This document shows positions 29,906 to 39,778 of a stretch of DNA of 64,000 bases, in pieces. How positions within the stretch are numbered: the first letter of the stretch is position 1; each line of letters begins with the position of its first letter. Both the position numbers and the translations under genes were made by a program. The notes beneath the pieces were generated by a model, which had not been told where the DNA came from, made no database searches, and worked only from the letters and a program-made list of their open reading frames with translations. Origin of the DNA: Escherichia phage CLB_P2; the sequence record OL770107, one strand, 5' to 3'.

Positions 29906-30065
29906 TATAAATAATAATATGGATTGGCTGATGCCATACAGAGCTTTGCTGGTGTATGGGGTTAGCTAATCCTAAGCGGTGGACTACAACTGAGAGACTT
30001 GCCGAAAGGAAGTGAAATTCAGAAGAACGTGTCCACCAATCTTTATCTCGAATTGAGAATTTAAA

Positions 30066-30314
30066 ATGAACAAACATCTGAATCACGCTCTTGAACTGCA
30101 ACGCAACGCTTGGAACAACGGCCACGAAAACTATGGTGCATCTATTGATGTTGAAGCCGAAGCACTGGAAATCCTGCGTTATTTCAAACATCTTAATCCT
30201 GCTCAGGCTACTCTGGCTGCTGAACTGGAAGCAAAAGATGAACTGAAATATGCTAAGCCTTTGGCTTCAGCAGCTCGTAAAGCAGTACGTCATTTTATTA
30301 TTACCCTGAAGTAA
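30066..30314 (+). CDS. rIII: rIII-like lysis-inhibition accessory protein (positional call)
   Basis: 82-aa ORF in the position rIII occupies next to gene 31 in T4; no motif confirmation. Confidence 0.5.
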   Translation: MNKHLNHALELQRNAWNNGHENYGASIDVEAEALEILRYFKHLNPAQATLAAELEAKDELKYAKPLASAARKAVRHFIITLK

Positions 30315-30667
30315 AATCGAGGAGCCGTCGAACTGTCTGATTAATGATTTGCGAATCATTATAGTTTTAAGACCCCGGCAGTTTTACGGTGTACCTCTTG
30401 AATGTTATTTTATAGCGGCAAGTGCATGCTACCCCGAGGTGATGGCCAATCGGGAGTACGCCTCAAGGCCTATATACCCATCAGTATATATCTTATCCTC
30501 GAGAAATCGAACCCGGAACCTTTAAGCTAACGGTGTGCAACAGATAAGAGCTATGATGACGAGGTTTATGGTTATCCTGTCGTTAAATATCCGAAACCTA
30601 TGTTCCCCTTGAGGGCTTGCGCAGGCAACGCCAATAAGTCCTGCATTCTAATTTAAGAGATTTAAAA

Positions 30668-30829
30668 ATGGCTAAGAAAGAAGTTAAAGTAGTTGACGGA
30701 ACCTCTAAACGCGCTGGTTACAAGCGTGCGTCTAACAAGCGTATCAATCAGGTAGTTGATAAGCTTCAAGCTCGTGCTCGTGCAGTATTGCGTGCAGATG
30801 CTGCTTGCTTCGGTAAAGTTATTGCATAA
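30668..30829 (+). CDS. small basic protein (53 aa)
   Basis: Below the ORF-track cutoff; read by eye: MAKKEVKVVDGTSKRAGYKRASNKRINQVVDKLQARARAVLRADAACFGKVIA; AAGAG RBS; followed by a strong terminator. Confidence 0.35.
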   Translation: MAKKEVKVVDGTSKRAGYKRASNKRINQVVDKLQARARAVLRADAACFGKVIA

Positions 30830-30834
30830 GTTAT

Positions 30835-30860
30835 GGGACTCTTCGGAGTCCCATTTTTGT
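30835..30860 (+). terminator. rho-independent terminator
   Basis: GGGACTC-TTCG-GAGTCCC followed by ATTTTTGTTT. Confidence 0.7.
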
Positions 30861-30880
30861 TTCTAAATCTTTAAAAAAAG

Positions 30881-30909
30881 GTATACATCTCCGGTAGGCA
30901 TGATACTAT
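30881..30909 (+). promoter_or_regulatory. early promoter cassette (PeSL-like)
   Basis: GTATAC, 17 nt, TACTAT, followed by the 37-nt leader GTACCAAATAATACGAAAACAAACTGGAGAATAAAATG. Confidence 0.45.
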
Positions 30910-30950
30910 AGACATGTACCAAATAATACGAAAACAAACTGGAGAATAAA

Positions 30951-31319
30951 ATGAAAATCAATCTTAACTCATACATCAAAGGTAAAGACCACGACGGTTA
31001 CAAAGCCATTGAAACTAAAGAGATGCAATGGCGCTTGTACAAAGAACAATTTGAATTTGTAGGTTGTATGACTCCTGAAGGTCCTTCCGATGACTTCTCT
31101 TGGAAAATTTTGGTAACAAACTTTTTTACTGGCGATACCTACGAACTGAAAACTATCATAACCGGTAAGATTCGTTGTAAGACCTATGAAGATGAAGAAA
31201 CCGGTTATTCTGAAGATGTTACATGGTATCAAAATGGTCGTATCACTACAGATAACCTGATCGAAAAAATGAATGCCAAAGGTGAATTAAATTTAGATAA
31301 TTGGATTAAAGTTGCATAA
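30951..31319 (+). CDS. hypothetical protein
   Basis: 122-aa ORF behind cassette leader with GGAG RBS. Confidence 0.45.
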   Translation: MKINLNSYIKGKDHDGYKAIETKEMQWRLYKEQFEFVGCMTPEGPSDDFSWKILVTNFFTGDTYELKTIITGKIRCKTYEDEETGYSEDVTWYQNGRITTDNLIEKMNAKGELNLDNWIKVA

Positions 31320-31323
31320 AACG

Positions 31324-31352
31324 GTTTACTTTGGTACAGGTTGTGTTATTAT
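31324..31352 (+). promoter_or_regulatory. early promoter cassette (PeSL-like) with hairpin
   Basis: GTTTAC, 17 nt, TATTAT; inverted repeat GGTACAGGT...ACCTGTACC; same 37-nt leader as the cassette at 30881. Confidence 0.5.
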
Positions 31353-31393
31353 AGACCTGTACCAAATAATACGAAAACAAACTGGAGAATAAA

Positions 31394-31759
31394 ATGAACT
31401 ACATCAACTTCGAACGTAAATATGTTTCTAACGGTATCGCTGGTTCTTCTGAAGTTATTTGTCTGTGGAAACACAACAACGGCACAGTGTGTGAAATCGA
31501 ACAGTGCATGACTCCTAACTACGTTTATATGCGCTTTGAAAATGGTATCACAGTTTCAATCACTATGGAAGGTTCTACTTTTAAAATCGCTTTGGACGAT
31601 GATTTCCGTCAACGTGATTTAGGTACCCATCCTTGCTGGAACGGTTCTAATCGTAAGCTTCTGGTTAAAACCTGGATTCGTCACATCCTGAGCAACCGTG
31701 CTAAACCTGAACACCTGGAAGCAATCTTTGATGTAGTTCTGAATGAATTTGATATCTAA
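31394..31759 (+). CDS. hypothetical protein
   Basis: 121-aa ORF behind the identical leader. Confidence 0.45.
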   Translation: MNYINFERKYVSNGIAGSSEVICLWKHNNGTVCEIEQCMTPNYVYMRFENGITVSITMEGSTFKIALDDDFRQRDLGTHPCWNGSNRKLLVKTWIRHILSNRAKPEHLEAIFDVVLNEFDI

Positions 31760-31770
31760 TCTTAAAAATG

Positions 31771-31790
31771 GAGGCTTCGGCCTCCTTTGA
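31771..31790 (+). terminator. hairpin terminator
   Basis: GGAGGC-TTCG-GCCTCC followed by TTTGAGG. Confidence 0.45.
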
Positions 31791-31800
31791 GGAAAATATT

Positions 31801-32088
31801 ATGTTTATGACCACTTATTTCGATACTCGTAAAAATTTCTGTGAAGTTGTTTTCTCTAAGGCAGGTAAAGATGTTCCTGCTGAAAAACAGCCTACTCGTG
31901 AATCCATTAAGGCTTATGCTGATGTGGTTTGTCCAGTAGAATTCCGTACAGTCAATGGTCGTGACACCCTAGCAATCACTAAGCTCAACCATGATATTAA
32001 CATCGACCCTAGCGCTGCCCGTGAAGTCAATACTTCTGACATCTACGGTGGTAATGTTAAATCACATGGATTTCAGATGAGGTTCTAA
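31801..32088 (+). CDS. hypothetical protein
   Basis: About 95 aa from ATG at 31801 with GAGGA RBS; the table ORF start at 31768 would include the terminator hairpin. Confidence 0.4.
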   Translation: MFMTTYFDTRKNFCEVVFSKAGKDVPAEKQPTRESIKAYADVVCPVEFRTVNGRDTLAITKLNHDINIDPSAAREVNTSDIYGGNVKSHGFQMRF

Positions 32089-32282
32089 TGCAACTATTCT
32101 TATCACAAACCGTTCAGCTAAAAGGCATAGGTATTCCTGGTATGATTTCAAAGGTTTTACCTGCTTTTAAATTAGGTAATGCTACTATTAAAGAAGCCTA
32201 CACCGTCCTATGGGTCGATGGCACTGAAGACGTTCGCATGGGTTCTGAATTGTCTGTAATCAAATGTTTGAAGCGAGGATAA
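32088..32282 (+). CDS. hypothetical protein
   Basis: 64-aa ORF. Confidence 0.35.
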   Translation: MQLFLSQTVQLKGIGIPGMISKVLPAFKLGNATIKEAYTVLWVDGTEDVRMGSELSVIKCLKRG

Positions 32283-32283
32283 C

Positions 32284-32496
32284 ATGTTTAGGAAATTGAT
32301 TCAGAAATTATTAGGTACGGAAATGGTCGAAGTGACTTATCGTGTAACCGACGTAAGTCCATGGGCCCGGAATATTGAACCATATACTAAAACAATTAAA
32401 ATGCTGAAATCTGACGGTGGATTATCTATTAAAGACCGTCTTCCCGGTTATGGACATTGGGCTGATGTCGAAATTATAAGTGTCAAAGATGTCTGA
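32284..32496 (+). CDS. hypothetical protein
   Basis: 70-aa ORF. Confidence 0.35.
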   Translation: MFRKLIQKLLGTEMVEVTYRVTDVSPWARNIEPYTKTIKMLKSDGGLSIKDRLPGYGHWADVEIISVKDV

Positions 32497-32947
32497 GTTA
32501 GAAATTAGAAGTAACTTTCCATGGCCATCATGCGCATTAAGTAACTTTGCTAAATGGCCTTTCGTTATGGATGGTATCCAATTTGGTGGACTCGAAGGAT
32601 TCCTCCAAGGATGTAAGGTGAAAAATGTTGAACAACAAAAACGTATATTTAGGATGTCCGGGTTGGACGCGCAAAAAGCTGGACGAGCTTATGCTAGAGC
32701 TGCGGACCGTGGGACGCTTTTCTGGCTTGGAATTCCCTTTTCAAGATACTCTGCAGCATGGAAAGAGTTGTATACAAATGCATATTTTGAAGCAGCGCTC
32801 CAGAACAAAGGATTCCGAGAAGCTTTACAAGCCACTAAAGGTAAGGTTTTAAAGCATTCAATGGCAAGCCACCTCAAAGAATGTGATACAATACTAACTG
32901 AAAAAGAGTTTATCGACATCCTAAACAAATTGAGAGATTTATTATGA
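32489..32947 (+). CDS. NADAR/YbiA-like (DUF1768-type) protein
   Basis: About 152 aa from ATG at 32489; LSNFAKWPFVMDGIQFGGLEGFLQGCKV resembles the YbiA/NADAR core as I recall it (FSNFAAWP..DG...SEHYFQAQKF); family call by memory only. Confidence 0.45.
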   Translation: MSELEIRSNFPWPSCALSNFAKWPFVMDGIQFGGLEGFLQGCKVKNVEQQKRIFRMSGLDAQKAGRAYARAADRGTLFWLGIPFSRYSAAWKELYTNAYFEAALQNKGFREALQATKGKVLKHSMASHLKECDTILTEKEFIDILNKLRDLL

Positions 32948-33582
32948 AACCAGTTATCTTAACAGATATCGATGGAGTATGTTTGAGTTGGCAGTCCGGC
33001 TTGCCTTATTTCGCACAGAAATATAATTTGCCTTTAGAACATATTTTGAATATGATTCAGGACGAACGTTTCTTATCTCCAGGCGAACTGTTTAATTGTG
33101 ACGACGAATTAGGCTCACGTTTAATAGAGAAGTATAACCAGTCAGATTTTATTCGTTATCTGTCCCCTTACATGGACGCATTAAAACACATCAACAAGCT
33201 CAAAAAAGACTTCGATTTTGTAGCCGTGACTGCGCTAGGCGACTCAATTGACGCTCTGCTGAATAGACAATTCAATTTGAATGCTTTGTTCCCTGGCGCA
33301 TTCAAGGAGATTCTGATGTGTGGCCATTCAGAATCAAAAGAAGACCTGTTCATAAGAGCTAAAAATACGTACGGCAAACGCATTAAGTTTTATGTTGACG
33401 ATTTGGCTCACCACTGTGATGCTGCATCCAATATTCTCATGGATATCCAAGTTTATTGGTTAGCCCGTGGTGAACGCGACTTTAAACCTAATTTAGCCGT
33501 AAAGGTTAATTCATGGGACGATATCGCAGCTATCGAATCCCTTCGTAATAATGCAGCAGTTGAATGGATTGCTCGAGGTTAA
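32944..33582 (+). CDS. HAD-superfamily hydrolase-like protein
   Basis: 212 aa; HAD motif I VILTDIDGV, motif II FVAVTALGDS, motif IV KFYVDDLAHH. Confidence 0.5.
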   Translation: MKPVILTDIDGVCLSWQSGLPYFAQKYNLPLEHILNMIQDERFLSPGELFNCDDELGSRLIEKYNQSDFIRYLSPYMDALKHINKLKKDFDFVAVTALGDSIDALLNRQFNLNALFPGAFKEILMCGHSESKEDLFIRAKNTYGKRIKFYVDDLAHHCDAASNILMDIQVYWLARGERDFKPNLAVKVNSWDDIAAIESLRNNAAVEWIARG

Positions 33583-33583
33583 T

Positions 33584-33856
33584 ATGTTTGTTGTTCATAC
33601 AATTTCAGGCCATGGCCCTACCACTACAATGGATTATGGTCACGTCAATCAGTTCTTTCGTCATCAACCTTTATTTAGGATTGCCAAAGAAAATCCTTTA
33701 TTTAAAGAATGTGTGGAGCAAGGGTTTATTTACATCAGCAAATACGACGTAAATATGTTTTCCACAGGCAATAATAGAATGATTACCTACAATAAACGCC
33801 TTGACTTGCTGTTAGAAGAAGTGGCGTATAATAGAAATCAATCCGGAAGAAGGTAA
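33584..33856 (+). CDS. hypothetical protein
   Basis: About 90 aa from ATG at 33584 with GAGGT RBS. Confidence 0.35.
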   Translation: MFVVHTISGHGPTTTMDYGHVNQFFRHQPLFRIAKENPLFKECVEQGFIYISKYDVNMFSTGNNRMITYNKRLDLLLEEVAYNRNQSGRR

Positions 33857-33859
33857 ATT

Positions 33860-35365
33860 ATGATTTTAGATATTTTGAACGAAATTGCTGCTATCGATTC
33901 TACTAAAGCTAAAGAAGCTATTATTGCACGTGAAAAGGATAACGAGCTTCTGAAACGCGTTTATCGTATGGCTTATACCCGTCGTCTGAACTACGGTATT
34001 AAAAAGTGGCCAGAACCTGGATTTACGTCTCAGTCCTTTGGTATGATTACACTTGAAGACCTTCTTGATTTCGCTGAGTTCACACTAGCAACCCGTAAGA
34101 TTACAGGTAATGCTGCTATTGAAGAACTTGCCCAAATTATTGCCGATGCTAAGGGTCAAGATGCCGAGGTATTACGTCGCGTAATGATGCGTGACCTTGA
34201 ATGTGGTGCATCGATTTCTATTGCTAACAAGGTTTGGAAAGGTTTAATCCCTGAACAACCTCAAATGTTGGCTAGTTCTTATGACGAAGCCCTGATTAAG
34301 AAAAATATTAAATGGCCAGCGTTCGCTCAATTAAAAGCTGATGGTGCTCGTTGTTTTGCTGAAGTTCGTAACGACGGGGTAACATTCCTTACTCGCGGTG
34401 GTAATGAATATCAAGGGCTTACTAAATTAGCTGAAGAACTTATTAAAATGACTGAAGAAGCTCGTCAGCGTCATCCTAATGGTGTTATGATTGACGGTGA
34501 ATTAGTTTACCATACGCCTAAGGTTGAACCGAAAGCATCTAACGATTTGTTTAGTATGTTTGATGAAGAACTTCCAGAATTAAGTAAAGCCAAGGAATTC
34601 CAGACAGTCGCCGACCGTTCTACTTCAAATGGTTTGGCTAATAAGGCCCTCCAAGGAACCATTACTCCAGCTGAAGCAGATGGTATGGTATTGCAGGCAT
34701 GGGACTATGTTCCACTGGATGAAGTTTATTCTGAAGGCAAAATTAAAGGTCAAAAATACGATGTCCGTTTAGCGGCATTAGTACAAATGGCTGAAGGTTT
34801 TACACGTGTCGAGCCTATTGAAACGCAATGGGTTAATAATCTTGAAGAAGCTAAAGTCGTTTATAAGAAATATGTCGACCAAGGCCTGGAAGGTATTATC
34901 CTTAAGAACATGGACTCCTACTGGGAAAACCGCCGTTCTAAGAATCTTATCAAGTTCAAAGAAGTAATCGATATCGCTTTAGAAGTGGTAGGTTATTATG
35001 AACACTCGAAGGACCCTAACAAACTTGGTGGTGTTGAGTTAGTATCGCGGTGCCGTCGAATTACATCCGACTGTGGTTCAGGCTTTAAAGATACTACCCA
35101 TAAGAAAGATAAATCGGGTAAAAAGGTATTGATTCCATTAGAAGACCGACCTGATTTAGACCGTGAACTTCTTATGAAACAAGCTCGTGAAGGTAAGTTG
35201 ATTGGACGTATTGCTGACTGTGAATGTAATGGTTGGGTTCATTCTAAAGGACGTACAGATACTGTAGGTATTTTCCTTCCAATTATTAAAGGTTGGCGTT
35301 TCGATAAAACAGAAGCTGATACATTTGAAGATGTATTTGGCGATTGGTCTCAAACTGGACTATAA
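33860..35365 (+). CDS. 30: ATP-dependent DNA ligase gp30
   Basis: 501-aa ORF; adenylation motif FAQLKADGARCF; N-terminus MILDILNEIAAIDSTKAKEAII and extensive blocks match T4 DNA ligase. Confidence 0.9.
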   Translation: MILDILNEIAAIDSTKAKEAIIAREKDNELLKRVYRMAYTRRLNYGIKKWPEPGFTSQSFGMITLEDLLDFAEFTLATRKITGNAAIEELAQIIADAKGQDAEVLRRVMMRDLECGASISIANKVWKGLIPEQPQMLASSYDEALIKKNIKWPAFAQLKADGARCFAEVRNDGVTFLTRGGNEYQGLTKLAEELIKMTEEARQRHPNGVMIDGELVYHTPKVEPKASNDLFSMFDEELPELSKAKEFQTVADRSTSNGLANKALQGTITPAEADGMVLQAWDYVPLDEVYSEGKIKGQKYDVRLAALVQMAEGFTRVEPIETQWVNNLEEAKVVYKKYVDQGLEGIILKNMDSYWENRRSKNLIKFKEVIDIALEVVGYYEHSKDPNKLGGVELVSRCRRITSDCGSGFKDTTHKKDKSGKKVLIPLEDRPDLDRELLMKQAREGKLIGRIADCECNGWVHSKGRTDTVGIFLPIIKGWRFDKTEADTFEDVFGDWSQTGL

Positions 35366-35366
35366 T

Positions 35367-35540
35367 ATGAAAGCTTATTTAGAAACAATTGTAATATCGC
35401 ATACTACGGCGGCCCCAGCCGTTTCTCAAACCATTTTAGAATTCACAGATGAAGCCGCATATAATAAATTTATTGAAGTCTTTGATGGCTATGAAAAAGG
35501 CCCGACATTCGAAGTATATCGTACGTTGCTACCACTTTAA
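35367..35540 (+). CDS. hypothetical small protein
   Basis: About 57 aa from ATG overlapping the ligase stop. Confidence 0.3.
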   Translation: MKAYLETIVISHTTAAPAVSQTILEFTDEAAYNKFIEVFDGYEKGPTFEVYRTLLPL

Positions 35541-35558
35541 GGCCTTCGGGCCTTTTAT
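35539..35558 (+). terminator. hairpin terminator
   Basis: AAGGCC-TTCG-GGCCTT followed by TTATGG. Confidence 0.5.
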
Positions 35559-35590
35559 GGCATAAATACGGTTATTAAAGAGGAATTATT

Positions 35591-37651
35591 ATGACCGAAC
35601 AATTGAATGAGGTGTTTGAGTCCGAAGGCACCCTGCCTACTGTAAACTTAAACCCAAAACTTAAAGTACCCCAGATTTGGAAGATTGGCGATGCTGAATC
35701 CCAATTGGTTGCTCGTATGGTATCTTATGCCTCTGAAGGCGATGCTATTAAACAGGTTAAATTAGGTGATAAATACGCCCACGTTATCCTTATGAGCCTT
35801 TCAGCTAAAGGTTCTCCAGCCGAACTTAAAGGCGGCCTAGGCCCTACTCCTATTGATGCTATCAATACCATTTTCGACGTAGTATTCGAACAAGTTAAAA
35901 AGCTTCGTATGGATGCAGTGATGTTCCGTTTTCCAACCAAGAAAATGAAAGGACAAGGCCCTATTGTCCAACGGATTATCCAACGTTTGGTAGCACAGAA
36001 AACCGGTGGACGTTTTAAAGTAGTTCCTGCTATGTACCAATTTACCGGTAAACATACTTATATCCTAGTAGTTCGTAAACAAGCTGATATCGAAGATATC
36101 AAAGGTATGCCAGGAATTAATTCCGAATTATACACTAAGGTAGATTCTGATGTCGGTGAAGTTTATATTTCTAAAAAAGAAGGCGTACAGGTTACTAAAG
36201 AAACTGCTATTGCCGGCAGTATTGCCAAAGTTGAAGAACGTCGCACTGATAAAATGGTTATAACCAAGACTAAGATTTCTCGTCGCGCTATTGCAGCAAG
36301 CCAGTCTTTAGAATCCTATCGTAATGAAAGTGAACTGTTTAAGAAATATGAAGCCACTGCCGCTGATTTTAATAAACCGGCAACAGCTCCATTAATCCCT
36401 GAGGCCCAGGAAATGGTCACCAATAACAATTCTCCTGCGGCTAAAAATAAAGTTGCTAATATAGTAGCTGAAGGCACTGCTGAAGAGTTGCATTACGATT
36501 ATAAAATGTTTCCTCTTCACGGTATAGGTGAAATCCAAGAGAAAATTAAAGAGAAAATCCTTACAGCCATCAAAAACGAACCTTTGACATCTGTTAAAGC
36601 TCTAGAAAAATATGCCTCTGTTATTAATACAGTTTTTGAAGAATATAAAGGCGAATGGCTGGCTATACATAACAAAACTCGTAAAGGTCAACCTGACGAC
36701 GTCTGGAATGAATTAACCGAGTCCAAGTGGAAAGCCGCTAAGACCAAGTTCATTAAAAAACGTGTTTATAGTTTTGCTGGTGTAGGTGGCGGTATTATGG
36801 TTGATATTACTTTAGGTCATAGTGCAGATAAATACACCCCTTCTCAAAAACGTGGTATTCGTGAATATTGTGGCTCCGGATATGGCGATATCAATAACCT
36901 TCTTTTAGGACGATATAATCCTCAGAACTATGAAGTTATGAGCGAAAAAGATATCGAATCTGCAGTTAATAATTTGGATTCTGCTTTTGAAAACGGTGAT
37001 AGATTACCTGAAGGCATCACAGTTTATCGTGCACAGAGTATGACGTGGGCCATATATAATGCTTTAGTCAAAAATAAAGTATTCTATTTTAGAAACTTTG
37101 TATCAACTTCACTGACCCCTATTATTTTCGGTCGTTTTGGTGTTACTCATGCCGGTGTAGGTCTTTTAGAGCCTGAAGTTAGAGCCGAACTTACTGTAGA
37201 TAAAAATGATGAAGGTTATACTAAGGTCCAAGGTTCCGGCGACAAATTGGTTAAAGTTGGTTGGGCCATTGACGGTGCTTCTAAAGTTAACGTGGTATTC
37301 CCAGGACAACTTGGTATTGCTACTGAAGCTGAAATCATTCTTCCGCGCGGACTAATGGTAAAAATTAATAAGATAACAGATGCATCTAATAATGATGGTA
37401 TAATATCCAACAATACAAAACTCATTCAAGCTGAAGTTATGACATCAGATGAGCTTCAAGAATCTGTAGTGTATGATGGTGACGTACTAATGGAAACCGG
37501 TGAATTGGTTGTATACCAAGATGACTTCGATACTTCCGAAAGCCCTGTATCTTTTGATTCATTTGTTAAATCTACACGGTTTGACGTACTGCCTCTTTTG
37601 GCTTCATGCATAGACCTCTATGACATACCAGAAAAATTCATCCAAGGGTAA
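35591..37651 (+). CDS. alt: Alt-like ADP-ribosyltransferase (paralog 1)
   Basis: 686 aa (T4 Alt 682 aa); LNE near N-terminus; C-terminal R-S-ExE motifs YRAQ, STS, EAEIILPRG; N-terminal 230 aa shared with paralog 2. Confidence 0.8.
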   Translation: MTEQLNEVFESEGTLPTVNLNPKLKVPQIWKIGDAESQLVARMVSYASEGDAIKQVKLGDKYAHVILMSLSAKGSPAELKGGLGPTPIDAINTIFDVVFEQVKKLRMDAVMFRFPTKKMKGQGPIVQRIIQRLVAQKTGGRFKVVPAMYQFTGKHTYILVVRKQADIEDIKGMPGINSELYTKVDSDVGEVYISKKEGVQVTKETAIAGSIAKVEERRTDKMVITKTKISRRAIAASQSLESYRNESELFKKYEATAADFNKPATAPLIPEAQEMVTNNNSPAAKNKVANIVAEGTAEELHYDYKMFPLHGIGEIQEKIKEKILTAIKNEPLTSVKALEKYASVINTVFEEYKGEWLAIHNKTRKGQPDDVWNELTESKWKAAKTKFIKKRVYSFAGVGGGIMVDITLGHSADKYTPSQKRGIREYCGSGYGDINNLLLGRYNPQNYEVMSEKDIESAVNNLDSAFENGDRLPEGITVYRAQSMTWAIYNALVKNKVFYFRNFVSTSLTPIIFGRFGVTHAGVGLLEPEVRAELTVDKNDEGYTKVQGSGDKLVKVGWAIDGASKVNVVFPGQLGIATEAEIILPRGLMVKINKITDASNNDGIISNNTKLIQAEVMTSDELQESVVYDGDVLMETGELVVYQDDFDTSESPVSFDSFVKSTRFDVLPLLASCIDLYDIPEKFIQG

Positions 37652-37654
37652 ATA

Positions 37655-39778
37655 ATGGAAAATTTAAACGAAGTTTTTGATAGTGATTCCGCTAAAAACT
37701 ATCCAGTAACAAATCTTAAGCCAGGCTCAGGTATCCCACAGATTTTCTCTATCCAAGCACCAGGTAATGATAACCTGGTTGCTCGTATGGTATCTTATGC
37801 GTCTCAAGGAGACGCTATTAAAATGGTTAAGCCTGGCGACAAATATGTCCACGTTATTCTAATGAGTTTGTCAAGCAAGGGTGCTCCGGCTGAACTCAAA
37901 GGTGGGCTTGGTTCCGACCCGCTTGGTGCATTGAATACTATTTTCGATACGATATATGAACAAGTAAACAAACTTAAAATGGATGCAGTTTTGTTCCGTT
38001 TCCCTACCAAGAAAATGAAAGGTAAGGGTCCTACTGTTCAGCGGGTATTAGCTCGTTTGGTGATGGCACGTACCGGTGGTAAGTTTAAAGTTGTTGATAA
38101 CATGTTCCAATTCAGTGGAAAACATACCTATGTTCTTTTAGTACGTCGCGGCACTAATATCGAAGATATCAAGGGTATGCCTGAAATTGATGCTGACCTT
38201 TATACCAAGGTTGAGTCTAAAGTTGGTGAAGTTTATGTTTCTAAGAAAACTGGCCGGGCCGTAAGTAAGGTCGAAGCCGTGGCGGCATCTATTGCACAGG
38301 TTGAAGAGAAACGTACCGATAAGGCTGTTATCTCTCGTACTAAGATTTCTCGTCGTATGGCTGCAGCAGCACAGTATTCTACTGCCGAACCTGAAACTTT
38401 ATCCCCTAAAGAATTGCAGGTTTATAATGAGTTTGAAGCTTCTGTACCTGTTCATTCGGCTGAAGGTCCTGAGAACGAAGGTATTGAACAAATTAGCCAG
38501 AACTTTAAAAAAGGTGCTATTACTAAAATGCGTCAGGCCTCTCAGTTTAAATCTAAGAGTGAGGACCTTGCCAACTTTAGATACACCATTGCTCTCACAC
38601 ACGCTTTAATGACTGATAGTAAATTTAAACTAAATTATGCTAATAGAGATAAACAAGGGTTTGAAATTTACTCTAATAATATGGCATTTTTTAATACGGA
38701 AGTCGATAGACTTTTAAGCGGCCTTTCTCAAATCAATACTACCAATAGTCTGGATATTATTAAGAGAATTGTTAATAACCTGAGTGCCCGTTTTCAGGGG
38801 TCTCCTTCAGAGAAAGCATCCCGAATTGCTTTCGCTATGGAAGCCGTTTATAAACTGATTAACGATTCTATTAGCGATGCATATGCTTATTCAGGCGAGC
38901 TCATTAAACCTAAGGGCTTGACCAAAGACGAAAGTAATGCCATTATTGAATATTGTGCGGCTGAATATGCTCCTATGAACTTATTCCTTTTAGGTAAACC
39001 TGAATCCGAAAACAATACAACAGCTATTAAATTGATTAAGGATTTAGACTCAGCATTTACCAAGGGTATTAAACTTCCTAAAGGTACTATTTTGTATCGT
39101 GGTCAGGATTTACCATACAAAATTCTGCGCCATAATATTGATAACAAAACCTTTTACTTTAAGAACTTTGTATCCGCTTCATTAAAGCCTAATATCTTTG
39201 GTGAATTTGGTAAAAATTATATGGCCCTCGACAACCAAGCAGTTTTTGTTGGTGATGAAGGTTCTTTATCCTCCGCCGATGAGTTGTTTAAATTGGCCAG
39301 TGGTAGTTCATCTGACGTAGGTGAAGTTGATGATGAAGAGGTAGAATGGGAAGAAGACGAGTTTGGTAATCCAATTGCACCTGAAGGCCCTGCAGACAGG
39401 ATTGCTGAAATTGGTATGGTTATTCGAGGTGCTGAAGCAGTTAAAGTTATCGCTCCTGGTGACCTTACAGAATATGCCGAAGAAGCGGAAATTATCCTTC
39501 CGCGCGGATTATTGTTGAAGGTTGATAAAGTAGCAGCTTTTGCTATGAATGATAGGGTATCTCACAAATACCTTATGGAAGCTACAGTGACATCTCCTTC
39601 AGAACTCAGTGAGTCCGTTTACGATGGTGACCATCTGATGGAAACCGGCGAAGTTAAATTGATGAATGGGTTTAAAGAATTCCTAGTTTCAGAATCTGTT
39701 TCAGAAAGTAACGAGGCTATGGAAATCCTTGCTGCATCTTTGGACATCTCTTCTTTACCAAATAAATTCAAAATGTAG
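37655..39778 (+). CDS. Alt-like ADP-ribosyltransferase (paralog 2)
   Basis: 707 aa; same N-terminal module and C-terminal YRGQ / SAS / EAEIILPRG motifs; unrelated central 250 aa and acidic insert DDEEVEWEEDEFG. Confidence 0.75.
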   Translation: MENLNEVFDSDSAKNYPVTNLKPGSGIPQIFSIQAPGNDNLVARMVSYASQGDAIKMVKPGDKYVHVILMSLSSKGAPAELKGGLGSDPLGALNTIFDTIYEQVNKLKMDAVLFRFPTKKMKGKGPTVQRVLARLVMARTGGKFKVVDNMFQFSGKHTYVLLVRRGTNIEDIKGMPEIDADLYTKVESKVGEVYVSKKTGRAVSKVEAVAASIAQVEEKRTDKAVISRTKISRRMAAAAQYSTAEPETLSPKELQVYNEFEASVPVHSAEGPENEGIEQISQNFKKGAITKMRQASQFKSKSEDLANFRYTIALTHALMTDSKFKLNYANRDKQGFEIYSNNMAFFNTEVDRLLSGLSQINTTNSLDIIKRIVNNLSARFQGSPSEKASRIAFAMEAVYKLINDSISDAYAYSGELIKPKGLTKDESNAIIEYCAAEYAPMNLFLLGKPESENNTTAIKLIKDLDSAFTKGIKLPKGTILYRGQDLPYKILRHNIDNKTFYFKNFVSASLKPNIFGEFGKNYMALDNQAVFVGDEGSLSSADELFKLASGSSSDVGEVDDEEVEWEEDEFGNPIAPEGPADRIAEIGMVIRGAEAVKVIAPGDLTEYAEEAEIILPRGLLLKVDKVAAFAMNDRVSHKYLMEATVTSPSELSESVYDGDHLMETGEVKLMNGFKEFLVSESVSESNEAMEILAASLDISSLPNKFKM

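Follow-up and report, generated by a model that had tools for sequence, protein, structure and literature searches.

Two adjoining genes of Escherichia phage CLB_P2 (record OL770107; the window analysed is a stretch of 64,000 nucleotides) very probably encode two independent enzymes, an orthologue of the T4 protein AdfN that would counter the DarT1 toxin alone and an NT5C-like HAD phosphatase that would act outside that function. The phage is a T4-like Dhakavirus whose sequence is 100% identical to OZ035781, and both open reading frames are present on the plus strand, at 32489–32947 and 32944–33582. On the evidence of its sequence and modelled structure the product of the former, gp30.3 (152 aa), is an enzyme of the NADAR fold, orthologous to T4 gp30.3 (AdfN), and can be described as a predicted stand-alone DNA ADP-ribosylglycohydrolase. 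A sequence-only reading of the window had arrived at the NADAR assignment from a core motif, had recognized a HAD phosphatase in the overlapping downstream frame and, taking in two Alt ADP-ribosyltransferases nearby, had speculated about an ADP-ribose handling or counter-defence module. The NADAR and counter-defence part of this inference is right but already known, since the biology has been published for the T4 orthologue, and the locus therefore adds only one more intact copy of AdfN, in a Dhakavirus. The letters of the DNA did suffice to spot the NADAR signature and to predict the reversal of DNA ADP-ribosylation as a means of counter-defence.

The gp30.3 frame begins with an ATG, the codon from which T4 gp30.3 is also annotated; a start at the in-frame GTG at 32480 would lengthen the protein by three amino acids. 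The protein is 85% identical to T4 gp30.3, ungapped over all 152 aa, with 23 substitutions, none of which falls at a known catalytic position. It matches Pfam PF08010 (E = 1.1e-64, 216.8 bits against a cut-off of 36, profile positions 2–138 of 138) and PHROG 420 (E = 2e-70). The core in which a resemblance to NADAR/YbiA had been noticed, residues 17–44 (LSNFAKWPFVMDGIQFGGLEGFLQGCKV), is aligned by phmmer to residues 29–56 of E. coli YbiA (PDB: 2b3w), FSNFAAWPIKVDGKTWPTSEHYFQAQKF, and the two proteins share the signature [FL]SNFA.WP...DG......E.[FY][FL]Q..K. YbiA was retrieved from the PDB only marginally, with E = 0.61 from the gp30.3 sequence and E = 0.025 from the family profile, and the Pfam NADAR profile (PF08719) is not matched by gp30.3 itself at E ≤ 1. 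Because PF08719 is unmatched and the YbiA profile match is weak, the NADAR assignment draws on fold, transitive matches and literature; fold comparison and transitive profile matches were used for gp30.2 as well, since the PDB sequence and profile searches gave marginal matches for both proteins. Twenty of the 60 members of the gp30.3 family match PF08719 (best E = 1.5e-7). The AF2 model of gp30.3 (pLDDT 94.6, pTM 0.89) consists of helices at residues 35–41, 47–54, 58–66, 89–105, 107–115 and 138–151 besides short strands, and its best three Foldseek matches in the PDB are all NADAR structures, namely 2b3w (YbiA, probability 1.0), 8bau (PnNADAR, 1.0) and 8bat (the DarT-associated NADAR of G. 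lovleyi, 0.98), with the remaining matches at a probability of 0.06 or less.

Conservation was assessed in three alignments, comprising 60 gp30.3 homologues (A1), 55 gp30.2 homologues (A2) and 66 gp30.2 relatives of 20–33% identity (A3). The candidate catalytic residues of gp30.3, whose loss would have spoken against the NADAR assignment, are retained throughout A1: the glutamate E36 (codon GAA, 32594–32596, plus strand) and the lysine K43 (AAG, 32615–32617, plus strand), each of which T4 AdfN cannot lose to alanine without loss of function (PMC11257639), are invariant and correspond, within the motif E..[FY][FL]Q..K, to YbiA E48 and K55. Equally invariant is H123 (CAT, 32855–32857, plus strand), the last-strand residue described as family-distinguishing (PMC11125620), a position at which phage NADARs of the gp30.3 type have His, YbiA has Glu and DarT1-linked NADARs have Asp (PMC11125620, PMC11257639). 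The C-terminal helix (residues 138–151; 32900–32944, plus strand) is intact, being modelled with high confidence and covered by the end-to-end alignment with T4; in the RB69 copy of AdfN, loss of the last 15 residues inactivates the protein (PMC11257639). The Dhakavirus protein thus resembles T4 AdfN in length, gene position, the residues E36, K43 and H123, the C-terminal helix and a 4-nt overlap with 30.2, and differs from it in its 23 substitutions and in its host genome, T4 being a Tequatrovirus.

T4 gp30.3 has been named AdfN, anti-DarT factor NADAR (Johannesman, Carlson and LeRoux, PMC11257639; Cihlova et al. 2024, PMC11125620), and is a DNA glycohydrolase of guanine-ADP-ribose, both required and by itself enough to overcome DarTG1 (PMC11257639, PMC11125620). 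Deletion of adfN renders T4 and T2 about 10^4-fold sensitive to DarTG1, and RB69 is rescued by ectopic AdfN, not by the E36A or K43A mutants (PMC11257639). Purified AdfN frees DarT1-modified DNA of ADP-ribose, and a two-hybrid assay of AdfN and DarT1 gave no interaction (PMC11257639); in vitro, guanine-ADPr is a substrate and thymidine-ADPr is not (PMC11125620). The challenge with DarTG hosts that the sequence-only reading had proposed for its counter-defence idea has in effect been carried out on the T4 orthologue, where AdfN defeats DarTG1 (PMC11257639, PMC11125620). T4 AdfN is no antitoxin in uninfected cells, and the authors allow for another phage factor (PMC11257639). In the proposed mechanism, the host DarT1 toxin would ADP-ribosylate guanines in replicating phage DNA, and AdfN, working alone and without binding the toxin, would hydrolyse the guanine-ADP-ribose bond with E36, K43 and H123, so that ADP-ribose is released and a clean template is left from which the phage could replicate on DarTG1-carrying hosts. 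Worked out on the T4 protein, this mechanism should extend by orthology to Dhakavirus AdfN, whose activity we infer from its 85% identity.

Among NADARs, the DarG1-type antitoxins (DarT1-associated, BC4488 family) are the clade nearest to the phage proteins (PMC11257639). These antitoxins, exemplified by that of Geobacter lovleyi (8bat), have the same fold (Foldseek 0.98, TM 0.58) and, like T4 AdfN, take ADP-ribose off guanine in DNA. The phage protein, in contrast, has no N-terminal extension, carries His rather than Asp on the last strand and is an orphan with no toxin gene, and its T4 counterpart gives uninfected cells no protection.

The gene order 30.4 / 30.3 / 30.2 / 30.1 / lig / alt is common to this Dhakavirus and T4. 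In the window, gene 30, the ATP-dependent DNA ligase (33860–35365, plus strand; Pfam PF01068, E = 9e-24), is the conserved downstream neighbour of gp30.2, and two tandem, paralogous Alt-like ADP-ribosyltransferase genes occupy 35591–39778 on the same strand (35591–37651 and 37655–39778; Pfam PF03496, E = 5e-32 and 6e-18; no NCBIfam match). The Alt-like genes indeed lie where they had been noticed, 2–6 kb downstream of the pair, and are context only, with no part in the AdfN mechanism. The start codon of gp30.2 overlaps the stop codon of gp30.3 by 4 nt in the sequence ATGA (32944–32947, plus strand), as it does in T4. The junctions throughout the 30.5–30 stretch are all equally tight, ranging between 8 nt of overlap and a gap of 3 nt, and the overlap is therefore not specific to this pair; the two genes adjoin because a tightly packed 30.x-lig-alt order of the T4 type has been inherited. 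Promoter and terminator scans of 30000–36000 gave nothing better than shuffled sequence, and nothing between gp30.3 and gp30.2. An internal frame, 30.3', was considered as a conserved overlapping gene and rejected, being open in close relatives only.

Sequence and model together show that gp30.2 (212 aa; 32944–33582, plus strand) has a true HAD fold and stands nearest to the NT5C-type 5'(3')-deoxyribonucleotidases, and we describe it as a predicted, NT5C-like HAD-superfamily phosphatase with a C1 cap. The four HAD motifs that had been read from the translation (DIDGV, T, K, DD) are all borne out, every one of their residues being conserved in A2, at 90% or more where not invariant. Motif I (D8-I-D10-G-V12; 32965–32979, plus strand), which provides the nucleophile Asp and the general acid/base Asp, lies at the end of strand 4–7 of the AF2 model, with D8, D10 and G11 invariant in A2 and D8 and D10 in A3. 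The second Asp of this motif marks phosphatase-type, not dehalogenase-type, HADs. Further along the plus strand, motif II (T96; 33229–33231) is at the end of strand 91–97, with conservation of 90% or more in both A2 and A3, motif III (K132; 33337–33339) stands just before helix 133–146 and is invariant in both alignments, and motif IV (D152-D153; 33397–33402), at the end of strand 147–152, is invariant in A2, with D153 invariant in A3 also. The model (pLDDT 93.7) has a Rossmannoid HAD fold in which motifs I–IV are placed canonically and a helical insert right after motif I, residues 16–86, forms the C1 cap; 161 HAD matches were obtained in the PDB at E ≤ 1e-3.

The Pfam searches suggested with the sequence-only reading gave a divided answer, for gp30.3 fell squarely into PF08010, though not PF08719, and gp30.2 stayed under the HAD thresholds: no Pfam HAD profile scored above threshold, NT5C alone appearing with E = 0.08 and 13.2 bits against a gathering score of 24.8. 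NCBIfam gave no match for gp30.2. The search with the gp30.2 family profile returned 1232 clusters. Nine of the 55 close homologues match PF00702 at E ≤ 0.1, and among the 66 remote relatives the family matched most often is Pfam NT5C, by 32 of them (best E = 4e-10). The profile built from these remote relatives matches 3bwv over its full length (E = 6e-6), as well as the nucleotide phosphatases SSM1/Sdt1 and an XMP phosphatase; matches to cdN in the PDB were marginal, with E = 0.15 from the sequence and E = 0.087 from the family profile. Identity to the NT5C-type enzymes (PF06941; cdN 2jao/6g2n, mdN 4mum, S. epidermidis 3bwv) is 14–18%, and gp30.2 departs from them in its score below the gathering level and in family-invariant residues of its own (R108, N111, F116-P117). 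Its substrate is most likely of a small nucleotide type: as a Mg2+-dependent HAD phosphatase, gp30.2 would remove phosphate from a dNMP or NMP, with D8 forming the aspartyl-phosphate intermediate.

The protein is widely conserved, in about 1,400 phage records, and in some GenBank records it is called 'haloacid dehalogenase-like hydrolase', '5'-3' deoxyribonucleotidase' or 'phosphatase'. T4 gp30.2 shares 75% identity with it across a catalytic core of 194 residues and is likewise encoded upstream of 30.1 and the ligase; it differs in being 278 aa long, with a variable C-terminal tail of roughly 85 residues that is absent from the Dhakavirus protein. A literature search on gp30.2 and on T4 30.1, 30.2 and 30.3 found no study of gp30.2 and no biochemical data on any gp30.2. 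In T4 Tn-seq data all 72 of the 72 TA sites in 30.2 carry insertions, which marks the gene as non-essential, and LB and M9 gave no difference. The gene is dispensable under laboratory conditions and lies outside the anti-DarTG1 function.

One competing interpretation takes the NADAR and HAD proteins as a joint unit for handling ADP-ribose, perhaps tied to the Alt ADP-ribosyltransferases, in which the HAD protein either processes an ADP-ribose-derived product or is itself the missing phage factor on which AdfN depends in vivo. It could appeal to the ATGA overlap, which suggests translational coupling and is kept in T4 and throughout the close relatives among the Tevenvirinae, and to the failure of T4 AdfN to rescue DarT1 toxicity in uninfected cells, for which its authors mention an extra phage factor (PMC11257639). 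RB69, in which the ectopic AdfN rescue was performed, also has its own 30.2 (and a 30.3 homologue), and the rescue is therefore not a strict test of AdfN sufficiency without gp30.2 in vivo. Against this stand the published T4 Tn-seq data, in a comparison that we take to be Control versus DarTG1 from its position in the dataset and from the depletion of 30.3: insertions in 30.3 have a log2FC of -7.25 (q = 0) on DarTG1, those in 30.2 of -0.12 (p = 0.61), in alt of -0.01 and in nudE of -0.03. Purified AdfN alone, moreover, de-ADP-ribosylates DNA (PMC11257639, PMC11125620). Linkage of the genes has been lost in most Straboviridae, gp30.2 being found within 4 kb in 20 of 80 viral gp30.3 loci and gp30.3 upstream in 36 of 71 viral gp30.2 loci, and on many phage genomes of 160–175 kb the two are about 58 kb apart. 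Where gp30.3-type NADARs are unlinked to gp30.2 they have no recurrent neighbour, only heterogeneous small ORFs, any one of them in at most 10 of 55 loci, and the overlap itself is as unspecific as the other tight junctions of the 30.5–30 stretch. For DarTG1, a functional link between the NADAR and HAD proteins is largely refuted, and the joint unit appears very unlikely. The proposed tie to Alt fares no better, given the neutral alt insertions. Alt modifies proteins on arginine. The NADARs tested act on guanine-ADPr in DNA (PMC11125620).

The ligase is the neighbour that gp30.2 keeps: it lies downstream in 68 of the 71 viral loci, in many at a distance of 14–600 bp, and does so also where gp30.3 is no longer nearby. 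Because of this linkage we considered whether gp30.2 is a 3'-phosphatase of DNA ends, or some other phosphatase of DNA repair, that prepares ends for the ligase encoded just downstream, and one remote relative does match Pfam HAD_PNKP. We rank this role low, as very unlikely, because of the large C1 helical cap and the NT5C affinity. In the HAD classification attributed to Burroughs and colleagues in 2006 and to Allen and Dunaway-Mariano, capped C1 members reportedly act on small molecules, and polynucleotide phosphatases are capless (C0). Among the remote relatives NT5C is matched by 32 of 66 and HAD_PNKP by 1 of 66, and the Pnkp match spans only about 125 core residues. The adjacency in T4-like phages can be explained by inherited gene order alone, and the T4 ligase is essential, whereas 30.2 is not.

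For gp30.3 itself, a role like that of YbiA would make it an N-glycosidase acting on riboflavin-pathway intermediates or on small ADP-ribose/NAD metabolites rather than on DNA. YbiA (NADAR/DUF1768, PF08719) is its best PDB match in sequence and in fold (E = 1.3e-4, TM 0.67), and NCBIfam TIGR02464 (riboflavin-intermediate N-glycosidase) is weakly matched (E = 0.027). That score, 14.7 bits, is far under the cut-off of 73.7; YbiA is only 19% identical to gp30.3, and its defining last-strand Glu is replaced by His, H123 here, in all gp30.3-type proteins. YbiA has been linked to riboflavin-intermediate N-glycosidase activity and gives no DarT1 protection in vivo (PMC11125620), whereas T4 gp30.3 is active on guanine-ADPr DNA and has a DarTG1 phenotype (PMC11257639, PMC11125620, and the Tn-seq data). 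A YbiA-like role is extremely unlikely and, as far as the 85%-identical T4 protein is a guide, already contradicted by experiment.

With the two-enzyme reading preferred, the practical value of the analysis is negative evidence: an 'ADP-ribose module' of NADAR, HAD and Alt should be kept out of the annotation, because the adjacency of these genes is inherited T4 gene order. The other protein, gp30.2, is a widely conserved, predicted NT5C-like phosphatase whose gene stays next to DNA ligase and is dispensable in T4. It could be a phosphatase that edits the nucleotide pool, with a role that would show only under particular conditions, such as a nucleotide- or NAD-targeting defence or a DarT variant, and it could be functionally tied to DNA ligase and not to AdfN, an idea that we consider improbable. 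A weaker variant of it would make the small upstream gene 30.4 an accessory factor of AdfN, beyond a mere polar effect; insertions in T4 30.4 are mildly depleted on DarTG1 (log2FC -1.79, q = 0.014).

The two open reading frames that the sequence-only reading had placed at 32489-32947 (gp30.3, plus strand, 152 aa) and 32944-33582 (gp30.2, plus strand, 212 aa) are both real, and gp30.2 starts inside the gp30.3 stop codon (ATGA). The 2-kb stretch around them matches Dhakavirus CLBP2 (OZ035781) at 100% identity and other JS98-like phages at 92-95%, Dhakavirus being a genus within Tevenvirinae, family Straboviridae. The gene order of the window (30.8, 30.7, 30.6, 30.5, 30.4, 30.3, 30.2, 30.1, DNA ligase, Alt) agrees gene for gene with the annotated T4 map from 30.8 to Alt.

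The recognition of gp30.3 as a NADAR protein was correct. Its motif LSNFAKWPFVMDGIQFGGLEGFLQGCKV aligns with FSNFAAWPIKVDGKTWPTSEHYFQAQKF of YbiA, the protein scores E=1.1e-64 against Pfam PF08010 (Bacteriophage protein GP30.3), and it is 85% identical to T4 gp30.3 over all 152 residues without a gap. In a Foldseek search of the PDB with the AlphaFold2 model (mean pLDDT 94.6; input of 60 homologues), the top three matches were exactly the three NADAR structures, namely E. coli YbiA (2b3w, probability 1.00), the Phytophthora NADAR with ADP-ribose (8bau, 1.00) and the Geobacter lovleyi DarT-associated NADAR (8bat, 0.98), all remaining matches having a probability of at most 0.06. The proposed profile check for DUF1768 came out mixed: the window protein itself does not reach the Pfam NADAR profile (PF08719), but 20 of 60 family members do, with a best E-value of 1.5e-7. 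Residues E36, K43 and H123 are invariant in the alignment of homologues, and the C-terminal helix (residues 138-151) is present in the model of the window copy.

The function of the T4 orthologue is settled by the literature. The gp30.3 proteins form a phage branch of the NADAR superfamily in which the last-strand Glu/Asp is replaced by His, and purified T4 gp30.3 takes ADP-ribose off guanine in DNA, not off thymidine (PMC11125620). Johannesman, Carlson and LeRoux renamed the gene adfN and reported that its deletion in T4 and T2 causes ~10^4-fold sensitivity to DarTG1, that ectopic AdfN rescues RB69, whose natural copy lacks the last 15 residues and is inactive, that mutants E36A and K43A are inactive, and that AdfN does not bind DarT1 (PMC11257639). 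The purified protein is active alone in vitro (PMC11257639, PMC11125620), and the DarTG1 phenotype of adfN has been reproduced by T4 transposon sequencing (bioRxiv 10.1101/2025.11.20.689424). Since window gp30.3 retains all features of known importance, the C-terminal helix among them, we assign it the T4 AdfN mechanism by orthology. The earlier guess of counter-defence was thus right for gp30.3, although this biology is already published and not new.

The proposed coupling of the NADAR and HAD genes into a module is not supported. The most direct evidence comes from a supplementary T4 transposon-sequencing table of control versus DarTG1 hosts, in which the relevant sheet was identified by its file position and the 30.3 depletion, not by a header: on DarTG1, insertions in 30.3 are depleted with a log2 fold change of -7.25 (mean reads per site falling from 261 to 0.7, q=0), against -0.12 (p=0.61) for 30.2; the values for alt (-0.01) and nudE (-0.03) are not significant. 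T4 30.2 is non-essential (insertions at all 72 of its 72 TA sites) and shows no difference between LB and M9 medium. Linkage gives the same answer, gp30.2 lying within 4 kb of a gp30.3 relative in only 20 of 80 diverse viral loci, mainly from close Tevenvirinae relatives. Among 71 gp30.2 loci flanked on each side by 3 kb or more, gp30.3 is upstream in only 36, whereas a DNA ligase gene is just downstream in 68; many complete genomes of 160-175 kb have gp30.2 and gp30.3 ~58 kb apart. Nor is their 4-nt overlap special, because the junctions from 30.6/30.5 through 30.1/ligase vary between 8 nt of overlap and a gap of 3 nt, with the same layout in T4. No recurrent neighbour gene was found for the unlinked gp30.3-type NADARs.

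Gene 30.4 (32284-32496, plus strand) overlaps the adfN start by 8 nt, and insertions in its T4 counterpart are mildly but significantly depleted on DarTG1 (log2 fold change -1.79, adjusted p=0.014); this is most likely a polar effect on downstream adfN, while 30.4 may instead have an accessory role. The value for T4 30.5 (-3.0) has p=0.64 and reflects a few high-count sites. Many large phage contigs, up to 358 kb (loci L025-L081 of those compared), carry gp30.3-type NADARs of ~40% identity away from the ligase locus, with unrelated small ORFs on either side, placements which suggest that the gene has changed position within Straboviridae-like genomes. The spacing between gp30.2 and ligase is often 14-600 bp even where gp30.3 is elsewhere (33582-33860 in the window; loci L082-L157), an adjacency that may reflect either an inherited gene order or a functional connection.

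That gp30.2 is a real HAD phosphatase, as had been recognized from its four motifs (DIDGV, T, K and DD, here DIDGV, T96, K132 and D152-D153), is borne out by the conservation of their residues, which is complete or almost complete in 55 homologues and largely maintained in 66 relatives at only 20-33% identity. Direct matches are weak (Pfam NT5C, E=0.08; cdN in the PDB, E=0.087-0.15). In the AlphaFold2 model (pLDDT 93.7) all four motifs lie at canonical strand ends, and an all-helical insert (16-86) directly after motif I forms a C1 cap; Foldseek returned 161 PDB chains at E<=1e-3, the best 50 of which are all HAD-fold proteins. A profile search reached 1232 clusters among 1.8 billion representatives. 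The Pfam matches of 66 mostly remote family members are chiefly NT5C (32), HAD_2 (15) and Hydrolase (14), and a profile of the remote relatives matched 3bwv over its full length (E=6e-6), as well as the nucleotide phosphatases SSM1/Sdt1 and an XMP phosphatase. A motif I of DxD form marks HAD phosphotransferases, not dehalogenases, and C1-capped HADs act on small-molecule substrates. The best reading of gp30.2 is a putative Mg2+-dependent (deoxy)nucleoside-monophosphate phosphatase, probably a nucleotidase; its NT5C-like character and its persistent place beside DNA ligase are the only leads to its role. T4 30.2 (L001:3456-4292) encodes 278 aa, and the 212-aa window protein lacks its variable tail of ~85 residues; many other homologues resemble T4's (270-300 aa), the difference residing in a poorly conserved C-terminal tail past the HAD core (~residue 195). 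One metagenomic homologue of 302 aa (P0132) is fused to a DUF3045 (gp30.1) domain.

The two Alt-like ADP-ribosyltransferase genes noted nearby are present 3' of the ligase gene (35591-37651 and 37655-39778, plus strand; both PF03496). Their suggested link to AdfN is not supported beyond inherited gene order: the NADARs tested act on guanine-ADP-ribose in DNA (PMC11125620), and insertions in T4 alt are without effect on DarTG1 hosts. The paralogues are 65% identical across their first 240 residues and only 34% in the catalytic domain, which suggests that their targets have diverged.

Within gene 30.3, another frame holds a 75-aa ORF (32625-32852, plus strand) at the position of the annotated T4 gene 30.3'. 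Of 14 relatives at 80% identity or more, 13 have 76 open codons in this frame; in 66 diverged gp30.3 genes the open stretch has a median length of just 42 codons, so the ORF does not appear to be conserved as an overlapping gene. A 53-aa ORF (30668-30829), which lies just upstream of gene 30.8 in the place taken in T4 by 30.9 and rIII, is directly followed by a strong terminator-like hairpin (30833-30854, plus strand; a T-run follows its 9-bp stem, which has 5 G-C pairs), and this hairpin probably marks the 5' limit of the transcription unit that runs from 30.8 to ligase.
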